From: an uncultured Candidatus Saccharibacteria bacterium
GTDB lineage: Bacteria > Patescibacteriota > Doudnabacteria > UBA920
Direction of reading: 5' to 3'
DNA: 64,000 nt
Assembly (NCBI GenBank): GCA_964532425.1
Contig: CAZHIA010000002.1
Coordinates: forward strand, 169,798 to 233,797
Shown: one piece after another, positions 4,575-31,430 of the stretch
Numbering within the stretch: position 1 is the stretch's first letter
Layout: each line of letters starts with the position of its first letter
Position numbers and translations under genes: made by a program
The notes under the pieces: generated by a model
The model's input: the letters and a program-made list of their open reading frames with translations, nothing else
Told to the model about the DNA's origin: nothing
The model's database searches: none

Positions 4575-4676
4575 GTCCTGTCCGCCGAAGCCTTGGCGAA
4601 GGCGGAAGCTTCCCGCCTCTTCATATAACTATCATACCATACGGGAGAGTTCAAGATGGTTTTTATTTACCACAAA

Positions 4677-5327
4677 CTATTCGTCAATGGGTCGAATAAT
4701 CTCCGGCGAGTCATTCTTCGATGAGTTCACTGCGGTTGAAACAGGAATGGCATGCATGACTGCGTCCGGGTAAGGTGCAAGCATGGACAGTAGTTCATCC
4801 GGTGTCCCATCGTGGTTGAGCCACGCCTGTTCGAGTTCACGTGGCAATATGGCGGGCATGCGGTTGTGGACTCGCGCGACGAGCGGATTTGGGTTTAGCG
4901 TGATAATGGCGAACTGCGTGGCGTGATCAGGGCCGGTGTCATACAGTCCGGCGAACGCAAAGAGTTCACCACCGCCCACCGTAAAACGGTATGGCTGTTT
5001 TGTCTTGCCGATGTGGGACCATTCGTAAAATCCGTCCGCAGGCACCAAGCAGCGCTTGCCCGCAAAGAGGGAAGTAAAGAAACGTTTGGTATCGAGACTC
5101 TCTTTGCGCACGTTGAAAATTATTCCGCCTTTCATGAAAGCGGGGGTAAGGCCCCACGATGCAGTAACAAGGCCGTTCTGCAATTCCGTGTCGCGCTTGA
5201 GGATGATCGGCAGTTGTTGAGTAGGACGGGCGTTGTAACGGGGAGGAAGCTCCACTTTGTTGTACCCGGCATTGAACCTTCGGCCGATTTCTTTGAATGG
5301 ATGGATGACTGAAAATGCTCCGCACAT
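4677..5327 (-). CDS. yedK: SOS response-associated peptidase (SRAP; YedK/HMCES family abasic-site processing protein)
   Basis: Motifs 'MCGAF', 'DGFYEW' and 'HNRMP' are present. Start set to the ATG that places Cys at position 2, which is the family's catalytic nucleophile. Confidence 0.8.
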   Translation of the reverse strand: MCGAFSVIHPFKEIGRRFNAGYNKVELPPRYNARPTQQLPIILKRDTELQNGLVTASWGLTPAFMKGGIIFNVRKESLDTKRFFTSLFAGKRCLVPADGFYEWSHIGKTKQPYRFTVGGGELFAFAGLYDTGPDHATQFAIITLNPNPLVARVHNRMPAILPRELEQAWLNHDGTPDELLSMLAPYPDAVMHAIPVSTAVNSSKNDSPEIIRPIDE

Positions 5328-6071: not shown

Positions 6072-6100
6072 TTGACAGTATGACCTATTTATGGTATTTT
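6072..6100 (+). promoter_or_regulatory. sigma70-like promoter (TTGACA, 17-nt spacer, TATTTT) upstream of acpS
   Basis: ttgacagtatgacctatttatggtatttt. Confidence 0.45.
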
Positions 6101-6137: not shown

Positions 6138-6527
6138 ATGAACGAAATTGTGAGTGAACATGTTTCGGCGTCCTTAGCTGCCATACAGGGTTTTCCTGTT
6201 GTTAGCTGTGGTATGGACATTGTTCATATTCCGACTTTCAGAGACCGCATGGTGCCAGCTGTCTTGGAGCGGACGCTGACCGATTACGAGCTTCGGGAAT
6301 TTCCCCGGCTCGAAAGCAAGGCGGGTCTGTTTGCCGCCAAGGAAGCGTTCATGAAAGCAGTTCACCGAAAGATCGACTGGCACGAAGTCTGGGTAGAGCG
6401 CAAGCTGAACGGACAGCCAGTCCTGCACAGCTTGTGCATGCCGGACGGATGTATTGCGCTGGTAACCATTTCACATGACGGCGATTATGCCGCCGCTGTA
6501 GTCTTGATCGGGAGGAAACCAGAATGA
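6138..6527 (+). CDS. acpS: holo-[acyl-carrier-protein] synthase (4'-phosphopantetheinyl transferase)
   Basis: Motifs 'GMDIVHI', 'FAAKEAFMKA' and 'ISHDGDYAAAVV' are present. There is an AGGGGG SD sequence. The TGA stop overlaps the next start (ATGA). Confidence 0.85.
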   Translation: MNEIVSEHVSASLAAIQGFPVVSCGMDIVHIPTFRDRMVPAVLERTLTDYELREFPRLESKAGLFAAKEAFMKAVHRKIDWHEVWVERKLNGQPVLHSLCMPDGCIALVTISHDGDYAAAVVLIGRKPE

Positions 6528-9004
6528 GTCAGCCACAAACTCTCTTTGACCTGCTGTTGACGTTTGAGCAGCGTGGTGGCCAAACAGCTATCATAGAACG
6601 AACTGGCGTGCGCCGGTTCAAGCGCAGCTATCGCGACTTGTTCGAGCGCACCGGCCAGATGGCCCATTTCCTCGCAGAACAGGGTGTAAACAAAGGCGAC
6701 CGCGTGGTAGTCTGGGCGCCGAACAGCTTCTGGTGGGCCGTAACGTACTGGGCCTGCGCATCGCGCGGTGCTGTGATTGTGCCCGTAGATTTTGGTTCGG
6801 GCCTTGAACGTGCCGCCAAGATCGCTGAACTGACCGAGGCAAAAGTTATTGTCCAGAGCCAGTTCAAAGCGGATCGGTTCGATGATTCGCGTGCAGTGCT
6901 CGCTGAAGAACTGAAGTATCTGCTGGATGGCCGTCCGGTCCTGTGTGACGATCCGGGGACTGCCCCTGAAGATCTGGCTGAGATCATGTACACTTCAGGG
7001 ACCACATCGGACCCGAAGGGTGTCATGCTGTCGCATCAGAATTTGACCGCCAACCTGATTCAGGTTACCGGCCATATCACCATCGGCAGCAACTACCGGT
7101 TCTTGTCCTTACTGCCGCTGTCCCATATGTTCGAACAGTTGGCGGGGTTTCTGGTGCCGCTCTATCTTGGTTGCCAGATTGTGTACCTTGGCACATTAAA
7201 GCCGACGGCGATCATGGAGGCATTTGCAGAAGAGGATATCTATGTAACCGTCATCGTGCCTCGGCTGCTTCAGGTGCTCAAGGAGAAAATCGAGAATACC
7301 CTCGCTGAAAAGCACTTGCTGGGAGGATTTGCCGCGCTCAAGTCTTGGGCAGCGGAAAAATCGCTTGGCATACGCCGTACGCTGTTCTATCCGATCCGTA
7401 AAAAATTTGGAAGCAATTTCCAATTTTTCGTCTCGGGTGGTTCAGCCTTGGACGGCGCTGTTTTTTCGTTCTGGCAGGGGATTGGTATCCCGGTCATCGA
7501 AGGTTACGGACTAACCGAGACATCACCAGTCGCCACGGCCAACACGCGCGAGCGGCAGGTGCTGCGGTCAGTTGGCGTGCCGCCCAAAGGCGTCACAGTC
7601 CGGCTGGCTGAAGACAGGGAGATTCTCATCAGTGGCGCCAACGTCTTCATGGGGTATTACAAGAATCCCCACGCAACGCTGGATGCATTCACTGACCAGC
7701 GGGAATTTAGAAGCGGTGATTTGGGCCGGTTCGACGAGGAGGGGAATCTCTACATCGACGGCCGCAAGAAAGAGATGATCGTCCTGCCGTCAGGAATGAA
7801 CGTGTTTCCTGATGATATTGAGGGGGTGCTGAATGCCTTACCGGGCGTTCAACAGTCTTGTATCGTCGGCAAGAAAACGACCGACGGCGAGGAAGTCCAT
7901 GCGGTGTTGATCCTTAATGGTAGCCGCGACCCCAAGGATATCATTCGGGAAGCCAATAGCAAGCTTGAAAGTACGCAGCAGATCACTGGTTTTACCATCT
8001 GGCCTGAAGCAAAGTTTCCGACCACCTCGACCCTCAAGATCCAGCGGACTAAGGTCCGTGACCAGATCGCCAAGGGCACCGGGGACGGACAGGTCAGCAT
8101 GGTGGGGGATGAGCTGCAACAACTGCTCGCCGAGGTTACCAAAAGGAACCCGGGTGAGATTACCGATGCGGCGAGTTTGGTAAACGATCTTGGCCTAACG
8201 TCCATCGGCCGGCTGCAGCTGGTAACCTACCTCGAACAGAAGTTCCGCCTCGACGTGGAAGAAGATGCAATCACTCCGCAGACGGTTGTCGGCGACCTTC
8301 GCCGCATGATCGAAAAGCGCGAACAGGTTCAGAGCGCTAACACTTTGCGGTTTTGGACCAACTCCGCGCCAACACGCGCCTTGCGGCGGGTAACCGATCT
8401 GCTGCTGTGGCTGTGTTTCTACCGGTGGTTCTTGCAGCTGAAGGTGGAAGGCATGGAAAATCTGGACAGGGTGGACTACCCGGTCATTTTTATCTCCAAC
8501 CATGTGAGCTACTTAGATCAGCCGGCCATCTACTTCGCCTTGCCGCGGCACATTCGTGCTCGGTTGGCGACGGCGGCTTGGGCTGAGTTTTTCACGAACG
8601 GGAATTCCATTCTGGTGCATCTGTGGAAGCGGGTGGCGTACGAGCTGGTTACCATCCTGCTCAATGTCTTCCCGTTGCCGCAGACCAAGGGTTTCCGCAA
8701 GTCCCTGCAGTTCATGGGCCGCTTGATCGATAACAAGATCAACTTCCTGATTTTTCCGGAAGGCGAGCGGTCTGCTGACGCGGAGCTTCTGCCGTTCATG
8801 CCCGGTCTCGGGCTCATGGTCAGCCAGTTGCAAGTGCCGGTAGTTCCGATCAAGATTACCGGCATTGAGAATGTCCTGCAAAAGGGCAGCAGCCGGCTGC
8901 GGCGGGGAACAGTCACGGTCCGGTTCGGCAAGCCCTTGCAGTTCGGGTTTGTCCCGCCGTCCGAGATTGTCGAAACGGCCCGCGAAACCGTTGCGACGCT
9001 CTAA
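6524..9004 (+). CDS. tri-domain fusion: AMP-binding acyl-ACP/CoA synthetase, embedded ACP-like carrier domain, and C-terminal lysophospholipid acyltransferase (PlsC/LPLAT)
   Basis: The AMP-binding domain shows 'YTSGTTSDPKGV' and 'GYGLTE'. The carrier domain has 'DLGLTSIGRL'. The acyltransferase domain has H(x)4D ('NHVSYLD') and 'FPEGERS'. Confidence 0.85.
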   Translation: MSQPQTLFDLLLTFEQRGGQTAIIERTGVRRFKRSYRDLFERTGQMAHFLAEQGVNKGDRVVVWAPNSFWWAVTYWACASRGAVIVPVDFGSGLERAAKIAELTEAKVIVQSQFKADRFDDSRAVLAEELKYLLDGRPVLCDDPGTAPEDLAEIMYTSGTTSDPKGVMLSHQNLTANLIQVTGHITIGSNYRFLSLLPLSHMFEQLAGFLVPLYLGCQIVYLGTLKPTAIMEAFAEEDIYVTVIVPRLLQVLKEKIENTLAEKHLLGGFAALKSWAAEKSLGIRRTLFYPIRKKFGSNFQFFVSGGSALDGAVFSFWQGIGIPVIEGYGLTETSPVATANTRERQVLRSVGVPPKGVTVRLAEDREILISGANVFMGYYKNPHATLDAFTDQREFRSGDLGRFDEEGNLYIDGRKKEMIVLPSGMNVFPDDIEGVLNALPGVQQSCIVGKKTTDGEEVHAVLILNGSRDPKDIIREANSKLESTQQITGFTIWPEAKFPTTSTLKIQRTKVRDQIAKGTGDGQVSMVGDELQQLLAEVTKRNPGEITDAASLVNDLGLTSIGRLQLVTYLEQKFRLDVEEDAITPQTVVGDLRRMIEKREQVQSANTLRFWTNSAPTRALRRVTDLLLWLCFYRWFLQLKVEGMENLDRVDYPVIFISNHVSYLDQPAIYFALPRHIRARLATAAWAEFFTNGNSILVHLWKRVAYELVTILLNVFPLPQTKGFRKSLQFMGRLIDNKINFLIFPEGERSADAELLPFMPGLGLMVSQLQVPVVPIKITGIENVLQKGSSRLRRGTVTVRFGKPLQFGFVPPSEIVETARETVATL

Positions 9005-9024: not shown

Positions 9025-9061
9025 CCGCTGCCTGGCGTTTAAGCTGGGCAGCGGTTTTTTT
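9025..9061 (+). terminator. rho-independent terminator
   Basis: Hairpin ccgctgcc/ggcagcgg followed by T7. Confidence 0.65.
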
Positions 9062-9210
9062 ATACCATGGTGCTTTACCCTTGTTGATTGTAGATACTCC
9101 AGCTATACGGTGCCATACACGTCATTGTATGTCTGTTTTTCAGTTTTATATATTATAGTGAATAAGGGATTTGAATGACCTGAAACTTGGCTGGTGGCGC
9201 GGAAAACTTA

Positions 9211-9239
9211 TTGACGTTTAAGGGAAAAATTGGTATACT
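9211..9239 (+). promoter_or_regulatory. sigma70-like promoter (TTGACG, 17-nt spacer, TATACT) for the efflux operon, followed by a ~140-nt leader
   Basis: ttgacgtttaagggaaaaattggtatact. Confidence 0.5.
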
Positions 9240-9379: not shown

Positions 9380-10945
9380 ATGGAAACTCCTGTCTCATAC
9401 GCGAAGCACCACAAATACATTTTTGGAACTTTGCTGGTCCTCGTTATTTTGGTGACCGCCATTGGTTCCCGTTTTATGGGTAAGAAGAACCAGCAGGCTG
9501 AGGTCAATCAGCTGTCCACGGTGACGCTGGTCAGCGCTCAGGATTATCTTAAGGATCGCGGACAAATTTCCGCCAATGGAATGGTTGAATCTCTGGAACA
9601 GGCAGAACTGCGCAGCCAGGCTTCCGGTCCGGTCACGAAGATTAATGTCCAAATCGGCCAGCAGGTAAGGAGCGGGCAGGTTTTGGTGACTTTGCAAAAT
9701 AATGACATTAGCGCGCAAATAGCCCAGGCCCAGGCTGTACTGAAGAGCCAACAAGCCCGCCTTGATGAGATGCGCAAAGGTGCTCGGAACGAACAGATTC
9801 TGTTGGAAGAAGCTAAACTGAATGCCGCCAAGCAAGGTCTGACTGATACCAAAGCCCAGCAAGACGTGCTGGTTAAAAGCGCTTACACAAGCTTGCTGAA
9901 TGCCGGGCTTACCGCCAAAGCGGGGAGCGGCAATAGCGGTTCGGGTAACCCGACCGTTTCCGGCAGTTATACCGGCACCCAGCAAGGCGAGTATGTGGTT
10001 ACCCTGTACGCCGCAAATGACGGAATGCATTACAAAGTGACGGGATTAGAGAATTATAGCGGTCTGATCAACTCGACTCCGCAATCGCTTGGTTCCCAGG
10101 GTTTGTTTATCCAGTTTCCCTCCGCCAATTTGAACGCGAACGACACATGGACTATTTCCATCCCGAATACCCAAGCTCCGACTTATACGGCTTTGAATAG
10201 CGCCTATCAGGCAGCGGTACAGGGACGCGAGACTGCGGTCAATGGTGCTCAGAGCGGGTTGAATGCCGAACAGAAAGCCTATGATCTCCTGGTAGCCGGC
10301 GCGACCAATGACCAAATTAGGCAGCAGGAGGCAGCAGTTGACCAGGCCAGTGCGGCAGTTGCCGCGGCATCCGCCCAGTATGACAAGACAGTCATCAAAT
10401 CCCCCATAGACGGCACGGTCGCATCATTGCCGGTCAAGTACGGCGAGCTGGTCAGTCCGGGAGCGCTTGTAGCTTCCGTAGTGAACAAGGGCGGCCAGCA
10501 GGTGAAGGCATACATTAGCGATTATGATCTTCCGTTTGTGGAAGAGGGGGCTGAAGTTGCCATTGGCGATAAGGCCACGGGCACGCTGGCACGCTTGTCC
10601 CCGAGTATTGATCCCCAGACTAAAAATGTCGAGGTACAAGTTGTTGTCACTGATCCGGCTGTAGCTGGTTTGGTCGTGGGTCAGAATGTGGCTTTAAAAA
10701 TTTCAACGAAGCAGTCGAGCGGTTCCGGCCCGGTGTTCTTGCTGCCGCTTCAGGCGGTAAAGGTTTCCGGTGGTGGTGCTTCGGTTTTGACCGTGAAAGA
10801 CGGTTCGATTATTGAAGAGCGCCCGGTGGAGCTTGGCTCTGTTTCCGGCGAGAATGTGGAAGTGAAAAGCGGCCTGACTCCCGATATGCAGATTATCTCG
10901 GCTGTGTATGATCTAAAAGCGGGGCAGAAGGTGAACGTGGAATAG
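9380..10945 (+). CDS. RND efflux periplasmic adaptor (membrane fusion protein, HlyD/AcrA family)
   Basis: N-terminal membrane anchor, long coiled-coil region and a C-terminal beta-barrel region with 'SPIDGTVASL'. Confidence 0.8.
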   Translation: METPVSYAKHHKYIFGTLLVLVILVTAIGSRFMGKKNQQAEVNQLSTVTLVSAQDYLKDRGQISANGMVESLEQAELRSQASGPVTKINVQIGQQVRSGQVLVTLQNNDISAQIAQAQAVLKSQQARLDEMRKGARNEQILLEEAKLNAAKQGLTDTKAQQDVLVKSAYTSLLNAGLTAKAGSGNSGSGNPTVSGSYTGTQQGEYVVTLYAANDGMHYKVTGLENYSGLINSTPQSLGSQGLFIQFPSANLNANDTWTISIPNTQAPTYTALNSAYQAAVQGRETAVNGAQSGLNAEQKAYDLLVAGATNDQIRQQEAAVDQASAAVAAASAQYDKTVIKSPIDGTVASLPVKYGELVSPGALVASVVNKGGQQVKAYISDYDLPFVEEGAEVAIGDKATGTLARLSPSIDPQTKNVEVQVVVTDPAVAGLVVGQNVALKISTKQSSGSGPVFLLPLQAVKVSGGGASVLTVKDGSIIEERPVELGSVSGENVEVKSGLTPDMQIISAVYDLKAGQKVNVE

Positions 10946-11098
10946 GAATTGACAAAATTTAAAAAATTGACAAAAATGTTCGGGCAAGAAACTGAAATAC
11001 AATTGTATTTCTACTGTATCTCAACTGTGTTACTACTGTATTCCAACAGTGTTGGCTTGCCAGTTAAGGCATATTAAATCAACTTTACCTTACGTACT

Positions 11099-14000
11099 AT
11101 GTCCGATCCTATTAACCCTTCTACTCCCCGCACCACCGACCAGCGCTACCTCGACCAGCTGGAATTCAAGCCGGAACTCAGAAAGACCTGGTTGAATTTT
11201 TTCGTCTCCAATTTCCGCGTGGTCATTCTCCTTATTATCCTGGTTAGCGGGGCCGGATTATATTCGTTCTTCCGCTTGCCGCGGGAATCCAATCCCGAAG
11301 TGAAGATCCCTATTGCCGTAGTTACGACGGTCTATCCCGGCGCTTCTCCTGCTGACGTGGAAGATTTGGTCACCAAGAAGATCGAAACCCAGGTCTCCGG
11401 CTTGAAGGGTCTCGATAAGATGACCTCGACCTCGGCCAATTCCTATTCGTCCATCGTCGTCGAATTCGACCCGAAGGAAGATTTGAAGGATTCCATCCGC
11501 AGCCTGCGGGACAAGGTGACTGATGCCAAAAAAGATCTTCCCGCGGATGCCAAAGATCCTGTCGTGACCGAAATCTCGCTGGATGACCAGCCGATTGAAA
11601 CCCTCGTCCTGACCGGGCCGTACGACGGTTTTACCATGCGCAAGTACGGCGAAGACCTTAAGGATGAACTGGAGAAAATCCCGGGCGTGCGCGAAGTTAA
11701 CATCTCCGGCGGCGACGAGAAGGAATTTCAGATCGCATATGATCCTGCCAAGTTGTTGTTTTACGGCATTTCCGCAGACCAGGCTAATCAGGCCGTTGCC
11801 GCCACCAATCTCGGCATACCTTCTGGCAACTTTGACGGCACAAAGTTCGTCTATCCTATCCGCACTGACTCGAAAGTCTATACTGCAGAGAGTATCGGCA
11901 ACATTGCCGTGTCCCATACCCAGGATGGGAGCGTGGTAACCGTGCGCGATCTGGGCCAGGTCAAAGAAACCTCCATCAAAAAAACCGTGTTGTCCCGCCT
12001 TTCCATTTTAGGTGACAAGCCGCAATCGGCCGTGACGCTGTCTATTGTCAAGCGCACCGGCAGTTCCATTTTGGACACTGCGGACAAAGCCAAACTGACC
12101 GCAGACAGCATGATCAAAACGTTTGCACCCGGCGTAAAGTACGATCTTACTTTCGATTCGGCCAAATTTGTCCGCGAGGATTTTAACCAGCTCACGCATG
12201 ACTTTATTCTGACCCTGTTGCTGGTCTTCGGCATATTGTTCCTTATTGTCGGACTCAAGGAGGCGTTTGTGGCCGGCCTTGCCATTCCGCTGACGTTCTT
12301 CATTAGTTTTACCGCGCTCGACATAATTGGTATTTCTTTAAACTTCCTTTCGCTATTCTCCTTGATTCTGGCTTTAGGTTTGTTGGTGGACGATGCCATT
12401 GTGGTCGTATCCGCTACCAAGCAGTACCTGCGGACTGGCAAGTACACGCCGGAAGAGGCGGTACTGCTGGTGCTCCATGATTTTAAAGTGGTACTGACCA
12501 CGACCACCCTGACCACGGTCTGGGCATTTTTGCCCCTGCTCTACTCTTCGGGCATTATGGGCGAGTACATCAAATCTATCCCGATTACCGTTTCCATAAC
12601 GCTCATCGGCTCGCTGCTTGTAGCTCTCATGATTAACCACCCGCTGGCTGCAGTGCTTGAACGGCTTCGCCTGACGCGGCGCTTTTTCTGGCTCCTGGAA
12701 GTGCTCATACTTATTATTGCCGGTATTTCCTTCATTGTTGGCGGCTGGGCCGGTTATCTCATTGGTGCTCTGTTGGTGGCGACTGAAATTTGGACTCTGG
12801 TCTGGTACGAGCGCGGGGGACATGCGGTGCTTATAGAGCATGAACAGTTATCCGAAAAAGAGTGGGAGAGCGACGAAGCGGTCAAACAGAAACTGCGCGA
12901 GCAGGCTAGCCACGAGAATCCTTCGCTGTCGAGCCGGCTCATGCATGGTATTATCCGCTTTGATCGGTTCCTGCCCATTTACGAAAAATACTTGCGCGCC
13001 GTTATTACGACCAAACAGCAGCGCCGAAGGCTCTACGTCGCAATAACGCTCCTGTTCCTTGTAGCCGTAGCCATGCCGGTCACCGGCATTGTTCAAAGCG
13101 AGTTCTTCCCGCCGTCTGATTCTGACTATGTCTACCTTGATATTCGCATGCCGGTCGGACAGAAACTGGAAGAGACCGACAAAATAGTAACACAGGTGGA
13201 AGAGAAATTGCTTCACTATCCGGAGATCGCCAATTTTTCCACGCTGGTCGGCCAGCCAAGCCCCCTCTCCGAAAGCAGCCGTGCCCAGACGAACCTAGCG
13301 TCCATTACCATTACACTGAAGGATAAGAAGATTAGAAAAGTAAAATCTTACGACTTTGCCGACCGCTTGCGTAACGAGGTCACTGACGTTGACGGCGCGG
13401 CTATTACCGTGTCTGCCCCGACCGGGGGGCCGCCGTCAGGCAGCGCATTCGAAGCACGCATCAAGGGCGATGACCTGAACAAGCTCAGTCAAATCGCTTA
13501 TGACTTGGAACCGAAGCTAACTTCCATCCCGGGCGTGATCAATGCCGATATTTCCCTCAAGGATAGCGCACCGGAATACACCTTCACCTTGGATCCTATC
13601 AAGCTGGAGCAGAATTCTTTGAATGCCGCGTACGTCGGTTCCACCCTGCGCATGGCTATTGCCGGTACGGATGTTTCCACCGTGCTCATTAACGGCAAAG
13701 AGGTGAAGATTGTCGCCCAGTTCGCGGACAACCAGCTACCAAGCTTGGAAGATGTGCAGAATTTGCAAATCCTGAACTTGCGCAAGCAGCCGGTCTTTTT
13801 GAAGGACGTAGCTCAGATAGATCTGAAGCCTTCCGTGGACAGCATTACCCGCATTGACCAGAAACGAACGGTGCTGCTGTCGGCCGGCGCCAACTCACAG
13901 ACAAACTCTAACATTATTCTGGCGCAGTTCAAGAAAAACATCGCGAACTACCAGCTGCCGGCAGGTTACAGCATTGTCTATGGCGGACAGAACGAACAGA

Positions 14001-14500
14001 ATCAGGAATCCGTAACCTCCATCATTGTGGCTATGATCATTGCCATGGTCCTCATTGTGGCCACCCTCGTCATCCAGTTCAACTCGTTCCGCAAAGCCTT
14101 CATTGTGCTCGTGACCATTCCGCTGGCATTAATCGGCGTATTTCTGGGCATGGCCATGCTGAACGTGCACTTAAGCTTCCCAGGCCTGATTGGTATTTTG
14201 GCCCTGTTCGGTATTGTGGTAAAGAATGCCATCATTCTCGTGGACAAGATCAACCTGAACTTGAAGAGCGGCATTGCATTTATGGATGCCGTAGTGGATG
14301 CGGGTAAGTCCCGGCTTGAGGCAATCTTCATTACTTCCATTTGTACCATTTTCGGCATTCTGCCGGTGACGCTCTCTAACGATCTTTGGCGGGCATTGGG
14401 TAGCGCGGTCATTTTTGGACTCATGCTGTCCTCGTTCCTGACACTCTTTATGGTGCCGACCCTGTTCGTGACACTGATTGGGGAGAAGGAGAGGTTTTAG
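11099..14500 (+). CDS. RND efflux transporter permease (AcrB/HAE family)
   Basis: 1133-aa product with 12-TM topology and two large periplasmic loops; AcrB-like N-terminus. Confidence 0.9.
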   Translation: MSDPINPSTPRTTDQRYLDQLEFKPELRKTWLNFFVSNFRVVILLIILVSGAGLYSFFRLPRESNPEVKIPIAVVTTVYPGASPADVEDLVTKKIETQVSGLKGLDKMTSTSANSYSSIVVEFDPKEDLKDSIRSLRDKVTDAKKDLPADAKDPVVTEISLDDQPIETLVLTGPYDGFTMRKYGEDLKDELEKIPGVREVNISGGDEKEFQIAYDPAKLLFYGISADQANQAVAATNLGIPSGNFDGTKFVYPIRTDSKVYTAESIGNIAVSHTQDGSVVTVRDLGQVKETSIKKTVLSRLSILGDKPQSAVTLSIVKRTGSSILDTADKAKLTADSMIKTFAPGVKYDLTFDSAKFVREDFNQLTHDFILTLLLVFGILFLIVGLKEAFVAGLAIPLTFFISFTALDIIGISLNFLSLFSLILALGLLVDDAIVVVSATKQYLRTGKYTPEEAVLLVLHDFKVVLTTTTLTTVWAFLPLLYSSGIMGEYIKSIPITVSITLIGSLLVALMINHPLAAVLERLRLTRRFFWLLEVLILIIAGISFIVGGWAGYLIGALLVATEIWTLVWYERGGHAVLIEHEQLSEKEWESDEAVKQKLREQASHENPSLSSRLMHGIIRFDRFLPIYEKYLRAVITTKQQRRRLYVAITLLFLVAVAMPVTGIVQSEFFPPSDSDYVYLDIRMPVGQKLEETDKIVTQVEEKLLHYPEIANFSTLVGQPSPLSESSRAQTNLASITITLKDKKIRKVKSYDFADRLRNEVTDVDGAAITVSAPTGGPPSGSAFEARIKGDDLNKLSQIAYDLEPKLTSIPGVINADISLKDSAPEYTFTLDPIKLEQNSLNAAYVGSTLRMAIAGTDVSTVLINGKEVKIVAQFADNQLPSLEDVQNLQILNLRKQPVFLKDVAQIDLKPSVDSITRIDQKRTVLLSAGANSQTNSNIILAQFKKNIANYQLPAGYSIVYGGQNEQNQESVTSIIVAMIIAMVLIVATLVIQFNSFRKAFIVLVTIPLALIGVFLGMAMLNVHLSFPGLIGILALFGIVVKNAIILVDKINLNLKSGIAFMDAVVDAGKSRLEAIFITSICTIFGILPVTLSNDLWRALGSAVIFGLMLSSFLTLFMVPTLFVTLIGEKERF

Positions 14501-15309: not shown

Positions 15310-15526
15310 AGTTTTTGCTTGTTTGATTTTACTGTACCATGTTTTGCGTGAGTATGCAATCTTGTATATTTGTCAAAGTATCTCAATGTAGCGTGCCGAT
15401 TCATCGGCCATATGGACCAACCGGCCCATAAATGGGCACGCTACAGAATCAATAGAGACGTAGTGACTCTTGACTAAAGCAGCAATTTATAGTATCCTAT
15501 ATTTTCAACTTAAGGAGGAAACAACA

Positions 15527-16651
15527 ATGCAGAAGGAGAAAGCGGTGTCGAGCCTTAAGGATCTGGCGGCATTGCTGGGCCGGCAAGGGATTACCGACCG
15601 GAAAAAGTATAGCGAATGGAGCAAAAGGCACGTGCCGGATCTGGAAGACTTGCTGTGGTACCGGCAGGAATCTGGCATGCCGGCAGTTAATACGCTTGTC
15701 AAACCGGCATTCCATCCGAAGCTGCCACTCATGTTGTTCAATTACACGAACGTAGCTCATAACACACTCCACGGTTTTCCGAGCGGCTGGACCGACCCGA
15801 TCCGGCTGTGCCGCGGTATAGTATTTGATCTCTCAGGAAATCTCGTGGCCTTGCCCTTCCCCAAGTTCTTCAACTTCGGGGAGCACGAAGAAACCAAGAA
15901 TCTGCCGGATGAACCTTTCGAGGCAACGGCCAAGTTTGACGGGCATTTGGGCGTCATTTTCGAATACGATGGCCAGTTGCTTCTGACTACGCGGGTCATG
16001 TTCGACGGCCCGACCGGACAGCTCGGTAATGTTATGCTGAACCGGTACGCCGAAAAGTACGGCTGGCAAAAGTCGTACCCGGGCAACGTGACCGTGTGCG
16101 CCGAGATTGTCCATCCCAATACTCATGTGCTGACCGATTATGGCCAGCGCGAAGAACTGGTGGCGATTGGTGCGTTCGACCGGACGACACTGGACGATTA
16201 TTGCCACTGCCGCCTTGGCGATCTTGCCGACCAACTGCAGCTGTCTGCTGCCGATGTCTGGCCGGGGGAGAACGTGGCAGACCTAGTGGAATACATGCGC
16301 GATGATACGGTGACCAACCGGGAGGGGTTCGTGGCCCGGTTCCAGAGCGGCTTGCGGGTCAAGTTCAAGTTCAAAACATACATAGGGAAGATGGTGGCTC
16401 AAAAATTGAGCTATCCCTACTTGATGAACCGTTTTCGAACAGGTAACCTGCGGCGCATGCTGGATACGCTGCCCGAAGAGGTTATGCCCGAAGCCCTGCA
16501 GATGCTCGGACAGATTATGCTCTGTGTGAGCGACGGTGATACGCCTCAGCAGCGGTGGCGCAACCTGTACCCATTGGTGGAAGCCGGTAACTCCTACCAA
16601 CAAGGCGTCTGTCGCGACTTCGTGAAGTCCTTATCTGCAAGTGCCAAGTAA
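15527..16651 (+). CDS. ATP-dependent RNA ligase-like nucleotidyltransferase (KxDG superfamily)
   Basis: Motif I 'KFDGH', motif IV 'EGFVAR' and motif V 'LRVKFKFK' are present. Start set at the ATG with an AAGGAGG SD sequence (aa 20 of the ORF). Confidence 0.6.
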   Translation: MQKEKAVSSLKDLAALLGRQGITDRKKYSEWSKRHVPDLEDLLWYRQESGMPAVNTLVKPAFHPKLPLMLFNYTNVAHNTLHGFPSGWTDPIRLCRGIVFDLSGNLVALPFPKFFNFGEHEETKNLPDEPFEATAKFDGHLGVIFEYDGQLLLTTRVMFDGPTGQLGNVMLNRYAEKYGWQKSYPGNVTVCAEIVHPNTHVLTDYGQREELVAIGAFDRTTLDDYCHCRLGDLADQLQLSAADVWPGENVADLVEYMRDDTVTNREGFVARFQSGLRVKFKFKTYIGKMVAQKLSYPYLMNRFRTGNLRRMLDTLPEEVMPEALQMLGQIMLCVSDGDTPQQRWRNLYPLVEAGNSYQQGVCRDFVKSLSASAK

Positions 16652-22671: not shown

Positions 22672-23703
22672 CTACCACAACGCTTTTGAGGAAAGCCCTA
22701 AAACATAATCAGGCATAAACGTTCCGCCGTCGGGCTCGCCCGGCCGGCAGCCGCCGTCGGATTCCCCAGGAGGCTTCCACCAGAACAGAAGAATGGGAAA
22801 TTTGTAGCGCAGTTCAAACTGCGGGCGGTCGCCGAGCGCACGGCCCGGGGGATTGCACCAGGGATACGGGGTGGAATTGTCTTGCAGCGGGCCGCGGCCA
22901 TTCCTGGCGGTATCGATGGTAGCGCCACCAATTTGTATACTGTAAGCGGTCCGCAGGGTTTCATACAGATCATTGGTATAGACCAGAGTGGGAGATAGAT
23001 ACTCGAAACCCGAAACGTTTGCCGAAAATCCGTAGGCTCTGCTGATACCGGCGCGGGCTAGGCGGTCGGCCATGACTTGTACGGAATTCCATGCGGGGTG
23101 CTGCGGGTCGGCCACGGTCCAAGCGGAATTGCCGGCATCCAGGAAGGTATACACATTGGGCGCAGCAGCGAGCGCCTGCACGGCGTAGTTGATAAGATCG
23201 AGCCGAATTTGCTGCTGCGTGGCGTCCATGCAATCCATGTCGGGTAGCGCGTCAGGTTCCAAAACAATGGAAATGACTAGGTCAGGGCGAATGCCGATTC
23301 CCGCAGTGAAACCGTCGACCCAGTTTTTGTAAGCCTGTGGCGCGGGAGAGCCGCCGCCGGATAGCCCGCTGCAGACATCGCGCTGGTACATATTGTAGAT
23401 GACCAGGCCAACAAGCACTTTTTTGCGCTGCGCTGGGTCTGCGTATGAATTGATGGCAGCGGCATAGTTCTGCGCCCGCGACAGCAAGTTGTCCACGTCT
23501 GTCCGTATGTCCGTGTTCCAGTCCCCAAACCAGAATCCGTGCGGCTGGTTGGCAACTTTGGACATGAGGGCCAGTTTGTCCGGCTGGTCCTGGTTCCTGG
23601 ACATCCACTCTTGCATATAGCCGGGTGGTTCGATATAGAACGTGACATCGTCGGCAGCAGCAGGATGCAAAAGGAGCAGAAATAAGCAGAGCGAATTCCT
23701 CAA
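22672..23703 (-). CDS. secreted glycoside hydrolase family 6 (endoglucanase/cellobiohydrolase family)
   Basis: Signal peptide present. 'IVLEPDALPDM' and C-terminal 'WWKPPGESDGGC' match the GH6 catalytic signatures. Confidence 0.7.
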   Translation of the reverse strand: MRNSLCLFLLLLHPAAADDVTFYIEPPGYMQEWMSRNQDQPDKLALMSKVANQPHGFWFGDWNTDIRTDVDNLLSRAQNYAAAINSYADPAQRKKVLVGLVIYNMYQRDVCSGLSGGGSPAPQAYKNWVDGFTAGIGIRPDLVISIVLEPDALPDMDCMDATQQQIRLDLINYAVQALAAAPNVYTFLDAGNSAWTVADPQHPAWNSVQVMADRLARAGISRAYGFSANVSGFEYLSPTLVYTNDLYETLRTAYSIQIGGATIDTARNGRGPLQDNSTPYPWCNPPGRALGDRPQFELRYKFPILLFWWKPPGESDGGCRPGEPDGGTFMPDYVLGLSSKALW

Positions 23704-26195: not shown

Positions 26196-27290
26196 ATGCC
26201 AAAACGCGGTGAATATACGCCTATCCGTTTCCCCAAAGACGAGTCCGCTCATAATTTTATCGTCGAATGGTGGTATTTTAACGGGCATGTGTGCGACAAA
26301 TCGGGAAACCAGTATTCGTTCATGGACTGTCTATTCAAGATCGACAATAAAAAAGTACACGTACCGATCTTAAGCCGTTTGCCGGTGAAAACAGTCTACT
26401 TTTCCCATTCGCTCATTTCCGATCTGAAAGCCAAGAAGTTTTATCCCCGTACCTCTCCATTTTCCATTATTTCTGAAGACAGCTTCACCAAACCGCTGCT
26501 CTATATTAATTACCTGAATCCGGAACTGAAGAACGGTTACACGAATTGTGCTATTGAGCAGCTCAACACGTCTACCTACCGCGTGAAAAACGAACGGATC
26601 GATCTGACGTTGGTTGCGACCAAGCAGCCGCTCCTGGAAGGCGGCAGGGGATTTCTTGATTTAAAATCATCAACAACCTACTACTATTCTTTAACGAATC
26701 TCCGGACTGAAGGGAGGATTAAAATAAAGAACAAATGGGTTGAGGTTACCGGCAAATCGTGGATGGACCACCAATGGTCAAACGTCGGCTTTGCCAAAAA
26801 CGGGTGGAACTGGTTTTGCGCCCAGCTGGAGAATAATACGGAGCTGGTTTGCTGCATGTTTGACGATGGTAAAGACAAAACGTACTTCGCCGACATTTCG
26901 TATCCGGATGGCCGACAAGACCACTTTGCCGATGTGCAAATTAAACCATTGGGTAAAAATTGGACCAGCCCCCAAAGCAAGGCAGTCTACCCCGTTGCTT
27001 GGGAACTTGAAATTCCGGCAAAAAAATTGAAACTGACATTTCAGGCTCGAATTGCAAACCAAGAGATGCTGTCCGGATTCGTGAATTACTGGGAAGGTCC
27101 AATGGCTGTGCAGGCCTTGGTAAACGGCAAGAAAATTCGTGGTCAGGGATTTATGGAATTGGTCGGTTACCCGTCCAAATACAACGACGTGCATGTGCTC
27201 GAGGAAGACATTGAGGAAGATTTTAACCGGCTTTTTAAACTCGCAAAAGCCAAGACCGCTGCCATTGTGGGGAATAATAGGCAAAAATAG
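26196..27290 (+). CDS. AttH/CrtC-like (carotenoid 1,2-hydratase family) lipocalin-fold protein
   Basis: 364-aa product with 'SWMDHQWSN' and a beta-rich composition. The family assignment is tentative. Confidence 0.5.
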   Translation: MPKRGEYTPIRFPKDESAHNFIVEWWYFNGHVCDKSGNQYSFMDCLFKIDNKKVHVPILSRLPVKTVYFSHSLISDLKAKKFYPRTSPFSIISEDSFTKPLLYINYLNPELKNGYTNCAIEQLNTSTYRVKNERIDLTLVATKQPLLEGGRGFLDLKSSTTYYYSLTNLRTEGRIKIKNKWVEVTGKSWMDHQWSNVGFAKNGWNWFCAQLENNTELVCCMFDDGKDKTYFADISYPDGRQDHFADVQIKPLGKNWTSPQSKAVYPVAWELEIPAKKLKLTFQARIANQEMLSGFVNYWEGPMAVQALVNGKKIRGQGFMELVGYPSKYNDVHVLEEDIEEDFNRLFKLAKAKTAAIVGNNRQK

Positions 27291-27349: not shown

Positions 27350-30300
27350 TTAATAACTCCAGCCGAGATCACCTGTGTTGGTTGTTACCTTTAATAGGAC
27401 TAATCCATCCTGGCTTGCTGAGGTTTTTCCAGCGGGTCCGTTGCCAATAATGGTTGTTTTCTTTCCGTCATACCGGGCAAGCACGCTGAAGTCTTTTTTT
27501 GATTTGATTTCCTGAGTGAGAGATTTGAGATCTTGTTGTTTGTCGAGCCGCCAGGTGAATTTGAATTTGTTCTTACTGATGTCTGCCGGTATACCATCGT
27601 AGGAGATTGATTTGATCTCGGCTTGTTCCGTTCGGCGTCGGTCTTTTTCTTTGAGGCGGATTACTGTTGTGTTGCCGGCCTCGTCTGTTAATATAATTTG
27701 ATCGTCGTTATCCTGTACCTCAACAGTAGGGGAGACGTTGTCTTTGCCTTCAAAGAGCAAATCTTTCTTTTCGGGATTGAACCGGATAGCAGCTTCCGGC
27801 GCGGTTTTGTCGATTTTGATTGTTATTGTGGCGGGGGTTTCTACGTTGCCCACATTATCGGTAGAATAATAGGTTAAGGTATGAATGCCTTCCGCAGTAA
27901 TTAACGTTGATGTGGCTGTGGTTGTTGCTGCTCCGTCAAGGGCAATATATGTTGCCGCCACGCCGCTTTCCGTGTCTGCAGCGTTCAAGCTGATTTGTAC
28001 GTCAGAAGTATACCAGCCATTCTTGCCTGGTGTGCCGGAAACTACTGCCGTAGTCGAGGGGCTGGTCTCGTCAATAATATGTTTAACTTCTAAGTAACCG
28101 AGTTGTACATCGCTGATTTGCACGATCGAATGAACGTCGCTGAACGGATCCAGGCGAAAACCGATTTTATGAGGCCCGGGCTGCAACTCTCCAATGGGAA
28201 TTTCGCCCGCGGTATTCAAACCGGCCGGCGTTCTCCGTTCGTCGATCTTGTATACCGGATTGTCATCGACAAACACCGTCAGAACACCTTGTGCACCTAT
28301 CATTGATAGAAACTGGAAATCGAATTTGAGTATGTTTGATGGTTGGTCCGTAGTGTCCATAATTTCAAACCAGACTGGGGAGCCGGTTTCTTCGCTAAAC
28401 ACTGTTCCCCGCGGACCCAAATAATAATTTACGATACCACTGGCACTTAAAGTAATTGGCAGGTTCAGGATTTTGTCGAGTACTGCGTAGTAAAGGGTGT
28501 CCAAGACAGTAAACTCTTTCGGTGCTATTGGGCAAGAAATGGTATTTGTCGTCAACGCACAATAGTTGCCGGGGTTAAACTGAATTGGCAGGGTAGAAGA
28601 TCCGTGTTCCAACGCAAAAAGGAACCCGTATGCATATGCGTTACTGCTCGAACTTATACTATCTTGGTACCATTCATACGGCCAATTATGTGATTTATTA
28701 AGATCAAGCGCAATATAAGGGTTAGTGGGGGTAACATCGAAATTGTAAGCATTGTGAAGAGCTATATTTGTGTCATGATATAGCGGAACCAGTTCTCCCT
28801 TGGCATCGAGGTACTGTTCTGCCCACCATGAACTTTTGTCTCCAGAGGAACCATGAGTCGGATTGGGGTCAAATCCATATAAAGAAGAATCTCCGAAAGG
28901 GTCGTACGCGTCAAGGAATGTCAGGTGGATTATCGGCTGACTCGGCATATTCAATTTGCGGATCTTCGCGGCTGTATTCTGGATCAAGTTCGCTCCCGCG
29001 CTATGGCCGATCAGATGGATTTTTCCCCATGTGACGGTTGAAAGAGCGGCGCGGATGTCGGTTCCCGAAGCCTGTGCGTTTAGGTCATGTTCGAACCAGT
29101 CTCCCAGTGCCAGAACATCTCCCAATTCCCTCCCATGAATCCCGGCGTTGTTATATGCATCCCATGGGGCATTTACATTTGCCAGTGAAGCGTCCTCATG
29201 CCAATCAAACACGCAAATATTCCAGTTGGTTTTATCAGCCGGCGGGACTTGTGCTGCTATTGAGTCTGCCATATTACGGACCCACCCGTTTGCATCGTCT
29301 CTCCAGCCGTGCGTAATGATGACTAAGTTGCTCGCTGCTGTATAGTAAGCAGAGGAACAATCCAGTGTATTGTTTAATGAAGGTTGAGCAGAAGGGGTGT
29401 TTGCGATGGTTTTGGCGATAATTGTAAAATCCGTATTGCTTGCAACCCCGAACTCCTGCCAGGTCGAGGTGGCGCCGGTGTCGTCGATGGCGCGGGCTTG
29501 CCAGTGATACTGGCCGGGAATTAAGCCGAAGACAGTGGTAGATGCGATGCTACCGGAAGATGCCAGAGTACTGGTTGCCATTGGCTCATTGTAAAATCTT
29601 CCGCCATTTTCATTTGTTCGCCGTAGTTCAATTTGTAGGGAAGCCCTCCTTTCGGCCAGACTGGTTGGCAAACCTTGGAAGGTGACAGTGCTTTCGGTGG
29701 TCGTCGCGCCTTCGCTCATCGCGGTCGTACCATCTGGGAGGATTTGACCCAATGCAGTCAGTGTCGGCAATGAGGGTGTTGGCGCTTGATGGCCAAAATA
29801 ATATTTATTCGTATCAGTAAACCTATAAAAATCATTGGAAACCTGGCTATATGCCAATGTGATATAGTCGTCCGGTTTAATTGCCCGGCCCAAGGTATCT
29901 TCTATTTGGCTGCGGGTCAGGGGATTGCAGACCATTTTGTTGTTGACAATGCTGCAGCCATTATTTGTTTCCTGCCCCTGCCAGGAATGATAATTGTCCC
30001 ATTGCCAAATATGCTTGATGATAAAGTCATAATGTTGGCCGGTTAGAAGATAATCGGTAATTCCGTTGGCATCATCTTCAACAAGCACTGCAACGTCCTT
30101 GGACTGATCGGGCGCAAAATGCAGCTGAGAATCGTTAACATAAGGTGATTCTGAAACCTGGCCATTGAAACCCATAAGCAATACGATTCTCGTTTCCGGC
30201 CCCTGCCAGTCGAAACTGATTTTTAAATTGTCGTTTTGATCGTAATCGAAAGCAACGTCGGAAAACGGCGGCAGCTGGGGTGCATACGTTAGCTGGAAAT

Positions 30301-31315
30301 AAACATCCTGTAAGCCTCCGGGCAAGTCCGCAGTATATACTAGTGGCGAGTAGTTAGAAACAAAAGCATTTTCGTTAGACGTTTTCCATGAGCTGCCGTT
30401 GCTGGAGCCATAAATATTCAATCGTTTTGCGACCCCACCGAAGCTGACGTATGGTTGGAAAATAATGTAATAATATTTTTCCGGATTTAATGTTAGGCCG
30501 CTATAGGTAAGATTTGCGGGAGCAGGGGAGAGCCCTGTTGTGGCAAGACTGATCGGAACGGAAATATCGGTCGGATCAGTCGTGGCAGTGGCATTGTGCG
30601 GACATTGCATCTCTGAACCGCCCCAGACCGCTGTTCCGGTTCCCGGCCCGTTCTCTGGACTATAAGGCGTATCGCTTTGATATATAGTCAGGTAAAACGA
30701 ACCTCCGTCTGGGCAGGAAATTTTTAAATCCAGCCCATTGATGGTACCGCTTAAGCCATTTCCCAAGGATTGGTATAGTCTCTGTATCCAACCAACCGAG
30801 TACTCCGTATTAAAGTCGTTTTGGTTATAAAGGGTTGTCTCGGTTTGCGGAGCAGGAATGGGCACAATGGTAAAATCCGCATTTCCGGTTGAGCCGTACC
30901 CCTGCCAGGCCGATGTATTTCCCTGTTCATCCACGGCACGGGCTTGCCAGTGGTATTGGCCGGGGGCAAGATCGGTCATGGGAATTTGCGCTGTGGACCC
31001 GGAAGCCAGCAGGCTGCTGCTTGCCGTGGGCTGGCCAGTAAATTGTCCCTGGTTTTCGTCCAGGCGCCGCAGTTCGATCTCCATTCGGATTTGGCCGCCG
31101 GAAGAATCGGCTATGAGCCCTATAAATATTAATGAAGTGAGTTGGGTTGCGGTGCCGTCTTCCAGTACATTCCAGTTCGGCCGAAATTGACCGAGGTTGG
31201 CAACGGTCGGGGTTGCCCCAGTGTCTGCGGTTGCTTGCCAAGGAAAGATGAGCAGCCAGCATGGCAGCAGAACCAGGCCGATTGCCAAAACAAGATTAAA
31301 ATATGTTTTTTTCAT
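27350..31315 (-). CDS. giant secreted multi-domain protein with two Fn3-like modules, a central GxSxG alpha/beta-hydrolase (lipase/esterase-like) domain and C-terminal Ig-like domains
   Basis: Signal peptide after the re-assigned start (aa 35 of the ORF). The two Fn3-like modules carry 'QYHWQARAVDEQGNTSAWQ' and 'QYHWQARAIDDTGATSTWQ'. The hydrolase domain has 'IHLIGHSAGANL'. Confidence 0.75.
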   Translation of the reverse strand: MKKTYFNLVLAIGLVLLPCWLLIFPWQATADTGATPTVANLGQFRPNWNVLEDGTATQLTSLIFIGLIADSSGGQIRMEIELRRLDENQGQFTGQPTASSSLLASGSTAQIPMTDLAPGQYHWQARAVDEQGNTSAWQGYGSTGNADFTIVPIPAPQTETTLYNQNDFNTEYSVGWIQRLYQSLGNGLSGTINGLDLKISCPDGGSFYLTIYQSDTPYSPENGPGTGTAVWGGSEMQCPHNATATTDPTDISVPISLATTGLSPAPANLTYSGLTLNPEKYYYIIFQPYVSFGGVAKRLNIYGSSNGSSWKTSNENAFVSNYSPLVYTADLPGGLQDVYFQLTYAPQLPPFSDVAFDYDQNDNLKISFDWQGPETRIVLLMGFNGQVSESPYVNDSQLHFAPDQSKDVAVLVEDDANGITDYLLTGQHYDFIIKHIWQWDNYHSWQGQETNNGCSIVNNKMVCNPLTRSQIEDTLGRAIKPDDYITLAYSQVSNDFYRFTDTNKYYFGHQAPTPSLPTLTALGQILPDGTTAMSEGATTTESTVTFQGLPTSLAERRASLQIELRRTNENGGRFYNEPMATSTLASSGSIASTTVFGLIPGQYHWQARAIDDTGATSTWQEFGVASNTDFTIIAKTIANTPSAQPSLNNTLDCSSAYYTAASNLVIITHGWRDDANGWVRNMADSIAAQVPPADKTNWNICVFDWHEDASLANVNAPWDAYNNAGIHGRELGDVLALGDWFEHDLNAQASGTDIRAALSTVTWGKIHLIGHSAGANLIQNTAAKIRKLNMPSQPIIHLTFLDAYDPFGDSSLYGFDPNPTHGSSGDKSSWWAEQYLDAKGELVPLYHDTNIALHNAYNFDVTPTNPYIALDLNKSHNWPYEWYQDSISSSSNAYAYGFLFALEHGSSTLPIQFNPGNYCALTTNTISCPIAPKEFTVLDTLYYAVLDKILNLPITLSASGIVNYYLGPRGTVFSEETGSPVWFEIMDTTDQPSNILKFDFQFLSMIGAQGVLTVFVDDNPVYKIDERRTPAGLNTAGEIPIGELQPGPHKIGFRLDPFSDVHSIVQISDVQLGYLEVKHIIDETSPSTTAVVSGTPGKNGWYTSDVQISLNAADTESGVAATYIALDGAATTTATSTLITAEGIHTLTYYSTDNVGNVETPATITIKIDKTAPEAAIRFNPEKKDLLFEGKDNVSPTVEVQDNDDQIILTDEAGNTTVIRLKEKDRRRTEQAEIKSISYDGIPADISKNKFKFTWRLDKQQDLKSLTQEIKSKKDFSVLARYDGKKTTIIGNGPAGKTSASQDGLVLLKVTTNTGDLGWSY

Positions 31316-31430
31316 GTAATTGTTCTTATTTGCCTCAATTATACACCTTTTTGACTTTTGGCAAGCGACTTCGGTAGATATCGCGTATACTATTGGCAAG
31401 GGAGTATTTATTATCACATTGAATAAAATT

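Follow-up and report, generated by a model that had tools for sequence, protein, structure and literature searches.

A candidate self-loading lysolipid acyltransferase encoded with its own phosphopantetheinyl transferase in a Patescibacteria genome

Much of bacterial diversity belongs to the Candidate Phyla Radiation (CPR), or Patescibacteria, whose cells have membranes yet lack recognizable fatty-acid and phospholipid synthesis. How such a cell might turn scavenged lipid fragments into bilayer lipids is the question raised by a pair of overlapping genes in a 64,000-nucleotide stretch of DNA (hereafter the window) from an uncultured Candidatus Saccharibacteria bacterium, which GTDB places in Patescibacteriota, Doudnabacteria (assembly GCA_964532425.1, contig CAZHIA010000002.1, positions 169,798 to 233,797 of the forward strand). 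The first gene encodes a small phosphopantetheinyl transferase (PPTase) of the AcpS type, and the second encodes a fusion of an adenylation domain, a carrier domain and a PlsC-type acyltransferase domain. We propose, with moderate confidence, that this two-gene operon specifies a dedicated PPTase together with a self-loading enzyme that acylates a lyso-glycerolipid. The features of the locus are as follows.

6072-6100, + strand: predicted promoter-like site (TTGACA, 17 nt, TATTTT, with TG ahead of the -10 element), 38 nt 5' of the PPTase start codon
6138-6527, + strand: PPTase of the AcpS type (group I), 129 aa (Pfam ACPS, TIGR00556)
6510-6527, + strand: coupling junction, with a Shine-Dalgarno sequence at 6510-6515 and an ATGA stop/start overlap
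6524-9004, + strand: tri-domain protein, 826 aa, ElbD-like by Pfam domains, reductase domain absent
6569-8065, + strand: adenylation domain, aa 16-514 (Pfam AMP-binding, weak AMP-binding_C matches)
8108-8299, + strand: carrier (PP-binding) domain, aa 529-592 (PF00550, 34.6 bits against a cut-off of 20.8)
8438-8857, + strand: PlsC/AGPAT-type (acylglycerolphosphate acyltransferase) domain, aa 639-778 (PF01553, 59.9 bits against a cut-off of 23)
9025-9064, + strand: terminator-like hairpin (12-bp stem with 9 G-C pairs, 6-nt loop, then T7)

The list of open reading frames (ORFs) and the window sequence place both genes on the forward strand. At their junction, GGGAGGAAACCAGAATGAGT, the ATG of the second gene (6524-6526) and the TGA of the first (6525-6527) share the four nucleotides ATGA (6524-6527), and a Shine-Dalgarno sequence, GGGAGG, lies within the end of the PPTase gene, 8 nt 5' of the tri-domain start codon. 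A preliminary description, made from the sequence alone, had reported these frames, their overlap and several protein motifs; coordinates and translations are as claimed, Pfam agrees, and the matches are far beyond chance. The pair looks like a self-contained bicistronic operon, because a promoter-like site precedes it, a hairpin and a run of T residues follow it 21 nt past the tri-domain stop codon, and the next genes have a promoter-like site of their own (9211-9239). The putative promoter of the pair (10 of 12 positions in a consensus scan) and its putative terminator are consensus matches only. Those next genes, of the HlyD and RND (resistance-nodulation-division) families, were considered as part of the system and rejected, given the intervening terminator and promoter-like site and their lack of conservation beside the gene in relatives. 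They are curious in their own right for a presumably single-membrane CPR cell: 9380-14500 on the forward strand, past the operon's terminator-like hairpin, encodes an adaptor of the HlyD family (521 aa) and a long permease of the RND family (1133 aa; RND_permease_2, 500 bits, under its cut-off).

All three domains that the preliminary description had assigned to the larger protein are recovered by profile hidden Markov models. The adenylation domain matches AMP-binding over residues 16-379 (E 1.9e-70); its P-loop, T157 to G166, lies in YTSGTTSDPKG (which includes Y156 and is translated from 6989-7021), and Lys505 occupies the conserved catalytic-lysine position of adenylating enzymes. The predicted attachment site of the carrier domain is Ser560 (codon 8201-8203), inside DLGLTSIGRL (8186-8215); the domain is most similar to acyl carrier protein (ACP) models of the fatty-acid synthase (FAS) type, with scores under their cut-offs. 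In the acyltransferase domain, the HX4D motif is formed by H660 and D665 in NHVSYLD (8498-8518, with N659), and FPEG at residues 744-747 (8753-8764) extends to FPEGER (744-749) and FPEGERS (8753-8773). An AlphaFold2 model built from an alignment (pLDDT 79, pTM 0.72) has low confidence only in the inter-domain linkers. It predicts a helix that begins at residue 560, as expected for a carrier serine at the start of helix 2, and a hydrophobic helix at residues 615-636, ahead of the acyltransferase domain.

Key residues of all three domains are conserved. Among 25 aligned sequences, the invariant positions include T157-S158-G159..P164-K165-G166, E326-G-Y-G-L-x-E332, G398-D399, R414 and Lys505 of the adenylation domain, G557-L558-x-S560-I561 of the carrier, and H660/D665 and F744-P-E-G747 of the acyltransferase. 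In a broader set of 52 sequences, identity falls as low as 27%; among its members are proteins from Chloroflexota, Acidobacteriota, Nitrospirota and Acidimicrobiaceae and four myxobacterial proteins of the ElbD type. Throughout this set the carrier serine, in the motif (D/T)S(L/I), and the acyltransferase histidine are invariant; the aspartate is present in 51 of the 52 and is once replaced by glutamate. The domain order is likewise conserved among homologs. Of the two outcomes that the preliminary description named as refuting it, loss of the carrier serine or of the domain order in homologs, neither is seen.

The smaller protein exceeds the cut-offs of Pfam ACPS (PF01648; 42.5 bits against 25) and TIGR00556 (47.8 against 45.35). 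Judged by these profiles it is a single-domain PPTase of the AcpS type. The earlier label acpS, as the name of the housekeeping gene, overstates the evidence, because the protein falls under every NCBIfam AcpS equivalog cut-off (TIGR00516, 37.1 against 59.8; NF000832, 45.8 against 107; and likewise nine further AcpS/PPTase models). Both motifs reported for it, GMDIVHI and FAAKEAFMKA, lie within the frame, and residues G25, D27, K68-E69-A70, K73 and H113 do not vary among 18 relatives. We take the aspartate of G-x-D, the glutamate of K-E-A and the lysine that follows to have the catalytic roles generally assigned to them in AcpS, and the conserved residues would fit an active enzyme. Relatives of this PPTase span 102-129 aa; compared with its homologs, the window protein carries a 22-aa N-terminal extension. 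The group is a clade distinct from housekeeping AcpS.

The two genes travel together. Searched against metagenomes, a profile built from the PPTase clade gave 80 loci, of which 19 are at least 40% identical to the window PPTase and 17 of these have usable downstream sequence. A tri-domain gene directly follows the PPTase gene in 15 of the 17, and in two of those loci a patatin gene is present as well. PPTase relatives whose gene context was inspected also lie directly 5' of tri-domain genes or overlap a patatin gene. Among weaker matches to the profile, a tri-domain gene is nearby in 20 of 61, and most of the others, including those on long gut-metagenome contigs, have none, as expected for housekeeping AcpS. 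Over 32 loci with the pair, the distance between the genes ranges from -14 to +74 nt and is at most 17 nt in 29; the same 4-nt ATGA overlap is found in nine, including a locus from Acidimicrobiaceae (L011). In two metagenome loci, L121 and L128, the order is reversed, and the PPTase gene follows the tri-domain gene. The synteny that the preliminary description had proposed to look for is thus present in relatives, and its central idea, that a co-expressed PPTase primes a carrier in cis, is well supported by comparative genomics.

In other phyla the linkage is rare. A profile search of 39 full-length tri-domain loci of named genomes (Desulfuromonadota, Chloroflexota, Acidobacteriota, Myxococcota and others) found an adjacent PPTase in only one or two: an upstream ORF in L011, a metagenome-assembled genome of Acidimicrobiaceae (4675-5001; Pfam ACPS 25.0 bits, at the cut-off), and a doubtful one in L014. 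Linkage thus extends beyond the clade of the window, in L011 as well as in L121 and L128, and may date far back or have evolved more than once. The scarcity of adjacent PPTases fits priming in trans by housekeeping enzymes, and the simplest reading would be that AcpS or Sfp, where present, primes the carrier in trans and that lineages without one carry a dedicated PPTase.

There is a second recurrent neighbor. In the closest relatives a patatin-like lipase gene recurs beside the tri-domain gene, the PPTase gene or both, often in overlapping frames, at the following positions of the relatives' loci.

L002, 4849-5700: patatin-like gene
L086, 8472-9308: patatin-like gene
L087, 3842-4651: patatin-like gene
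L088, 82-918: patatin-like gene
L094, 1576-2460: patatin-like gene
L095, 3900-4733: patatin-like gene

On a Candidatus Sungbacteria contig the order is patatin, PPTase, tri-domain gene, in overlapping frames; a second near relative has alanine racemase, tri-domain gene, patatin, and a third has tri-domain gene, patatin, Fic, PPTase. The Geobacter setting is of another kind. In Geobacter sp. SVR (L004; 4672-5508 and 8698-9963) the tri-domain gene stands between an upstream gene for MlaA, a lipoprotein that binds phospholipids, and a downstream gene of the major facilitator superfamily (MFS), with no PPTase gene there; this is a setting of lipid trafficking, unlike the CPR context, and in the window no MFS gene lies beside the operon. 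The literature we searched yielded no paper that links CPR or Patescibacteria with PPTases, patatin or the tri-domain fusion, and the tight, clade-specific coupling to a dedicated PPTase, and often to a patatin-like lipase, in CPR-like genomes appears to be unreported there.

Gene structure, domains, conserved catalytic residues and conserved gene linkage are directly established, and from them we infer a three-step scheme, in which every enzyme activity, the use of a fatty acid as substrate, the acceptor and the role in the cell are proposals. First, the PPTase would move 4'-phosphopantetheine from CoA to Ser560, converting the apo carrier to its holo form. Second, the adenylation domain would use ATP and a free long-chain fatty acid to form an acyl-adenylate and would load the acyl group as a thioester onto the enzyme's own phosphopantetheine arm. 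Third, the carrier would hand the acyl group to the PlsC-type domain, where His660 and Asp665 are the predicted catalytic residues, and that domain would esterify a lyso-glycerolipid on its free hydroxyl at the membrane surface, on which the modeled hydrophobic helix (residues 615-636) could sit; a lysophospholipid is the likeliest acceptor, and lysophosphatidic acid is a possible one. The net reaction would convert free fatty acid, ATP and lysolipid to diacyl lipid, with both free ACP and an acyl-CoA pool dispensable. In related genomes lysolipid and fatty acid would come from the patatin-like lipase encoded next door, giving remodeling of the Lands-cycle type or a salvage loop. The first two steps draw on conserved residues, gene linkage and the precedent of ElbD from Myxococcus xanthus. 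The earlier characterization of the module as self-contained is apt for its built-in carrier and its own PPTase and goes too far as regards full autonomy: CoA as phosphopantetheine donor (once per enzyme molecule), ATP and a fatty-acid supply would all still be required.

The acceptor in the third step is the weakest point of this mechanism. When the acyltransferase domain is taken in isolation, two Aas-family models match it best in NCBIfam, through their acyltransferase segments (E 3e-14 and 1e-12), with the PlsC model TIGR00530 (AGP_acyltrn) ranking behind them (E 7e-10); its only solved sequence relative is PlsC of T. maritima (5KYM, E 1.4e-10). Cut-offs are reached in neither family: 38.8 against 102.95 for TIGR00530 and 22.5 against 501 for PRK15018 on the PlsC side, and on the Aas side 156 against 1349 (PRK06814) and 139 against 1221 (PRK08633) for the whole protein, with the domain alone giving 51.7, 46.8 and 24.7 bits, all far under cut-off (886 for the last). 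We favor a lysophospholipid because a patatin neighbor recurs, because the Aas-type segments match slightly better and because CPR bacteria are reported to be enriched in lysolipids (PMC7242380). The preliminary description had proposed a module that incorporates scavenged fatty acids into lysophospholipids; this chemistry stays an inference.

The acceptor might instead be glycerol-3-phosphate or lysophosphatidic acid, so that the enzyme would replace PlsB/PlsC and make phosphatidic acid de novo from scavenged fatty acids. Such a role would suit the solved PlsC relative, the TIGR00530 match and the report of CPR genomes that have PlsY and PlsC yet no route to acyl-ACP or acyl-phosphate (PMC7242380). 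Of the alternatives it survives best, and we nonetheless regard it as unlikely: the Aas-type segments outscore the PlsC models, the recurrent patatin-like neighbors are producers of lysolipids, and at loci with annotated neighbors no glycerol-3-phosphate dehydrogenase, CDP-diacylglycerol synthase or head-group enzyme lies beside the gene.

A different objection concerns the PPTase, which could be a general holo-ACP synthase for a free ACP encoded elsewhere, its adjacency to the tri-domain gene then showing only that lipid genes loosely cluster. In favor, the protein has the canonical single-domain AcpS form and keeps every catalytic residue, and some Patescibacteria are reported to have acquired acpP horizontally (PMC12455944). 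Against this stand the separation of the clade from housekeeping AcpS, with scores under all equivalog cut-offs, its position directly 5' of the tri-domain gene in 15 of 17 close relatives, in overlapping or nearly abutting frames, and the occurrence of more distant AcpS matches on long contigs that have no tri-domain gene. A second carrier domain was not found in the window with a family-specific profile, a search that a divergent free ACP could escape. General and dedicated roles are not mutually exclusive; a purely general one with incidental adjacency strikes us as improbable.

It is still less probable that the protein has a special, ElbD-like role in ether or other non-standard lipids, such as acylation of dihydroxyacetone phosphate, of an ornithine- or amino-lipid intermediate, or of a neutral lipid. 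Homology to myxobacterial ElbD-type proteins does extend over all three domains (28-31% identity), ElbD is required for the formation of alkyl ether lipids (PMC9131029), and ElbD homologs of Acidobacteriota and Poribacteria have been discussed as ether-lipid genes (bioRxiv 10.64898/2026.06.23.733905). The hallmark of the ether-lipid route, however, is a fatty-acyl reductase (FAR) domain, and the tri-domain protein has no match to the FAR1-like reductase family NAD_binding_4 and opens with its adenylation domain at residue 16. Homologs of elbB, elbE and agps were not identified among the scanned ORFs of the window or the annotated loci of close relatives, where the recurrent neighbors are patatin and PPTase instead. 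Pfam scans of the window, which were not a systematic search, likewise gave no match to haloacid dehalogenase-type (HAD) phosphatase or NAD-dependent epimerase families adjoining the operon.

Finally, the adenylation domain could be an ordinary acyl-CoA synthetase that feeds acyl-CoA to the acyltransferase past a vestigial or regulatory carrier, as the database label of the homologs (long-chain acyl-CoA synthetase) and the nearest solved adenylation relatives (acyl-CoA synthetases and MatB, not canonical fatty acyl-AMP ligases) might suggest, but we find this scarcely credible, because neither a tightly linked PPTase gene nor a serine and flanking motif that never vary over 52 sequences, the most distant at 27% identity, would be kept for such a carrier. 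The relatives in question, by sequence, are acyl-CoA synthetases, MatB, 4-coumarate ligases and adenylation (A) domains of nonribosomal peptide synthetases (NRPSs), with FadD10 only at E 8e-20; no protein named fatty acyl-AMP ligase is among the 60 sequence matches listed for the domain. The solved folds that Foldseek places closest to the model are acyl-CoA synthetases, MatB, 4-coumarate ligases and NRPS modules that join an A domain to a peptidyl carrier protein (PCP).

Returning to the proposal of a dedicated PPTase and a self-loading lyso-glycerolipid acyltransferase, several points weigh against it. Acceptor specificity is unreadable from the sequence, with Aas and PlsC equivalog scores so far under cut-off. 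In the 64-kb window itself, a phmmer search with four patatin neighbors from relatives found no patatin, and neither an LplT-like transporter nor other lipid genes were found; identification of the Geobacter MFS gene as an LplT was not supported, since it matches generic MFS families and no LplT model is among the 25 NCBIfam matches listed. The PPTase requires CoA, and the absence of acpP and FAS from this host is an assumption from the CPR literature, with 64 kb of the genome inspected. We know of no reductase-less family member whose activity has been measured. For ElbD itself, acyltransferase activity was undetectable in vitro (PMC9131029), and some Patescibacteria do carry acpP (PMC12455944).

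What is reported of CPR lipids gives the proposal its setting. ACP-dependent lipid synthesis is described as lacking in these bacteria, the genomes analyzed having yielded no enzymes that make or need ACP, and the lysolipids of their membranes were probably acquired from neighbors (PMC7242380). Mechanisms of lipid uptake and breakdown in Patescibacteria are reported as not identified (PMC11665869). The preliminary description had suggested that the module would suit an organism with reduced lipid biosynthesis; it does fit a Patescibacteria host, but the fusion is widespread and not special to reduced genomes. The three Pfam domains recur, at 50-54% identity, in at least 120 proteins of the database with lengths near 824 aa, the named ones being mostly from Geobacteraceae or Desulfuromonadaceae, with one from Candidatus Sungbacteria. 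A scan of species-representative genomes gave full-length matches in Geobacter and Citrifermentans (52% identity), in Anaerolineae and Dehalococcoidia (about 36%), and in Acidobacteriota, Acidimicrobiaceae, Nitrospirota and Myxococcota (26-35%).

In a neighbor-joining tree, the Geobacter-type proteins are monophyletic in 200 of 200 bootstraps, and they group with the PPTase/patatin-linked sequences in 200 of 200, whereas a clade of linked sequences that excludes Geobacter appears in only 16 of 200. This suggests that the Geobacteraceae clade is nested within the PPTase-linked radiation, a tentative placement because the tree is a midpoint-rooted distance tree and most of the metagenomic loci have no taxonomic assignment.

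A broader scenario, possible though tentative, is that the operon and the patatin of its relatives constitute the missing lipid-salvage route of part of the CPR: a lipase would cleave host or environmental phospholipids, and the self-primed enzyme would rebuild diacyl membrane lipids from the lysolipids and fatty acids so released, at the expense of ATP alone, with no need for type II FAS, free ACP or an acyl-CoA pool. The compact Geobacteraceae clade would then derive from a PPTase-linked lineage by horizontal transfer, with loss of a redundant PPTase. The operon offers a concrete candidate, one that can be cloned, for how scavenged lysolipid and fatty acid become bilayer lipid and, if the proposal is true, it would provide a first function for a widespread, uncharacterized fusion found in Geobacter, Chloroflexota, Acidobacteriota and others. 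Should the protein prove to be merely an ordinary remodeling enzyme, the locus would still exemplify a PPTase that travels with its only client.

Elsewhere in the window, many unannotated ORFs and a type IV pilin accompany several features of independent interest. Together with a large surface protein and a defense island, this gene content points to a Patescibacteria/CPR host, as do the Sungbacteria homolog of the tri-domain protein and the window TsaD, whose best named relatives (60-64% identity) are entries with organism names that start with '[Pat' or '[Can'. Next to a tRNA gene (46683-46754, +) lies a probable integrated element or defense island (46683-62000). Its genes encode a large serine recombinase (46717-48303, -; the end of this gene overlaps the tRNA), a Toprim/primase-like protein (49299-51488, -), an Mrr-nSTAND3 NTPase (54457-56730, +), a TerB_N protein (57312-58265, +) and an AbiU2-type HEPN protein (60552-61283, +). 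Between two of the island's protein genes lies a full-length match to the Rfam LOOT RNA (RF03000; 53037-53166, +; 72.7 bits against a gathering threshold of 46.4). Two ORFs of 207 and 236 aa (34225-34848 and 37705-38415, both -) consist of a DNA-ligase adenylation domain only, of the ATP-dependent type, and a T4-type RNA ligase (15470-16651, +, 393 aa) is encoded within 25 kb of both. A 1355-aa surface protein with a Big_13 domain (27350-31417, -) neighbors genes for a glycoside hydrolase family 6 protein (22672-23703, -) and for a CrtC/lipocalin-like two-domain protein (26196-27290, +) that is possibly a binder of hydrophobic ligands.

Among known systems, the closest by homology is ElbD of M. 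xanthus, the product of the elb ether-lipid operon, which has the architecture FAR, acyl-CoA synthetase (ACS), ACP and AGPAT, and for which in vitro work has verified the ACS and the ACP activity (PMC9131029). Its adenylation, carrier and acyltransferase domains are homologous to those of the window protein and stand in the same order. The myxobacterial matches are ORFs of about 1570-1620 aa (stop to stop), and tblastn aligns query residues 26-807 to them at 28-31% identity. In two that we scanned, L019 and L021, a fatty-acyl reductase (NAD_binding_4, joined in L021 by Sterile) stands N-terminal to AMP-binding, PP-binding and Acyltransferase, which is the ElbD architecture, and both have the carrier serine, HX4D and FPEG in common with the window protein. 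The window protein differs in its lack of the N-terminal reductase, its lack of elb-type neighbors and its low identity; its gene is preceded by that of a dedicated PPTase, to which relatives add a patatin-like lipase, and its host belongs to Patescibacteria. The ACS-ACP-AGPAT fusion without a reductase is not new: it is a known, uncharacterized kind found in many phyla, since "ElbD-like homologues" without the FAR domain are on record with scant or no lipid data (PMC9131029), and are mentioned by Lorenzen et al. (2014) as that review cites them.

The preliminary description had drawn its comparison with E. coli Aas, a bifunctional 2-acyl-glycerophosphoethanolamine acyltransferase and acyl-ACP synthetase that works together with LplT, a lysophospholipid flippase. 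As a functional analogue Aas remains pertinent, because the chemistry proposed for the window protein is that of Aas overall: a free fatty acid is activated at the cost of ATP, placed on a phosphopantetheine thiol and then moved to a lysophospholipid by an HX4D enzyme of the PlsC family (PMC11416262), and the isolated acyltransferase domain of the window protein scores best against the acyltransferase parts of the Aas family. Homology, however, lies with ElbD. In Aas the transferase (1-203) comes before the synthetase (204-719), the reverse of the order in the window protein, and free holo-ACP is used in place of a built-in carrier (PMC11416262), whereas the window operon has no LplT partner and its protein scores far under the Aas equivalog cut-offs. 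Aas is thus an independent fusion and not a member of the same family. Surveys of fatty acyl-AMP ligases (FAALs) describe FAAL-like domains fused to domains resembling lysophospholipid acyltransferase (LPLAT) or AGPAT, proteins that probably coincide or overlap with the present family, and regard the fusion as an unusual architecture independent of polyketide synthases (PKSs) and NRPSs, with no function assigned (PMC8460268; PMC12820801); they give neither a linkage to PPTase or patatin nor a CPR context. Loading modules of NRPSs and PKSs (A-PCP, FAAL-ACP) likewise combine adenylation, an in-cis carrier, a downstream transferase and an in-cluster PPTase, and the Foldseek matches include A-PCP didomains and modules. 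In the window protein, however, the acceptor domain is a PlsC-type lipid acyltransferase where those modules have condensation or ketosynthase, only one module is present, and the PPTase is small and of the AcpS type, whereas secondary metabolism usually employs the Sfp type.

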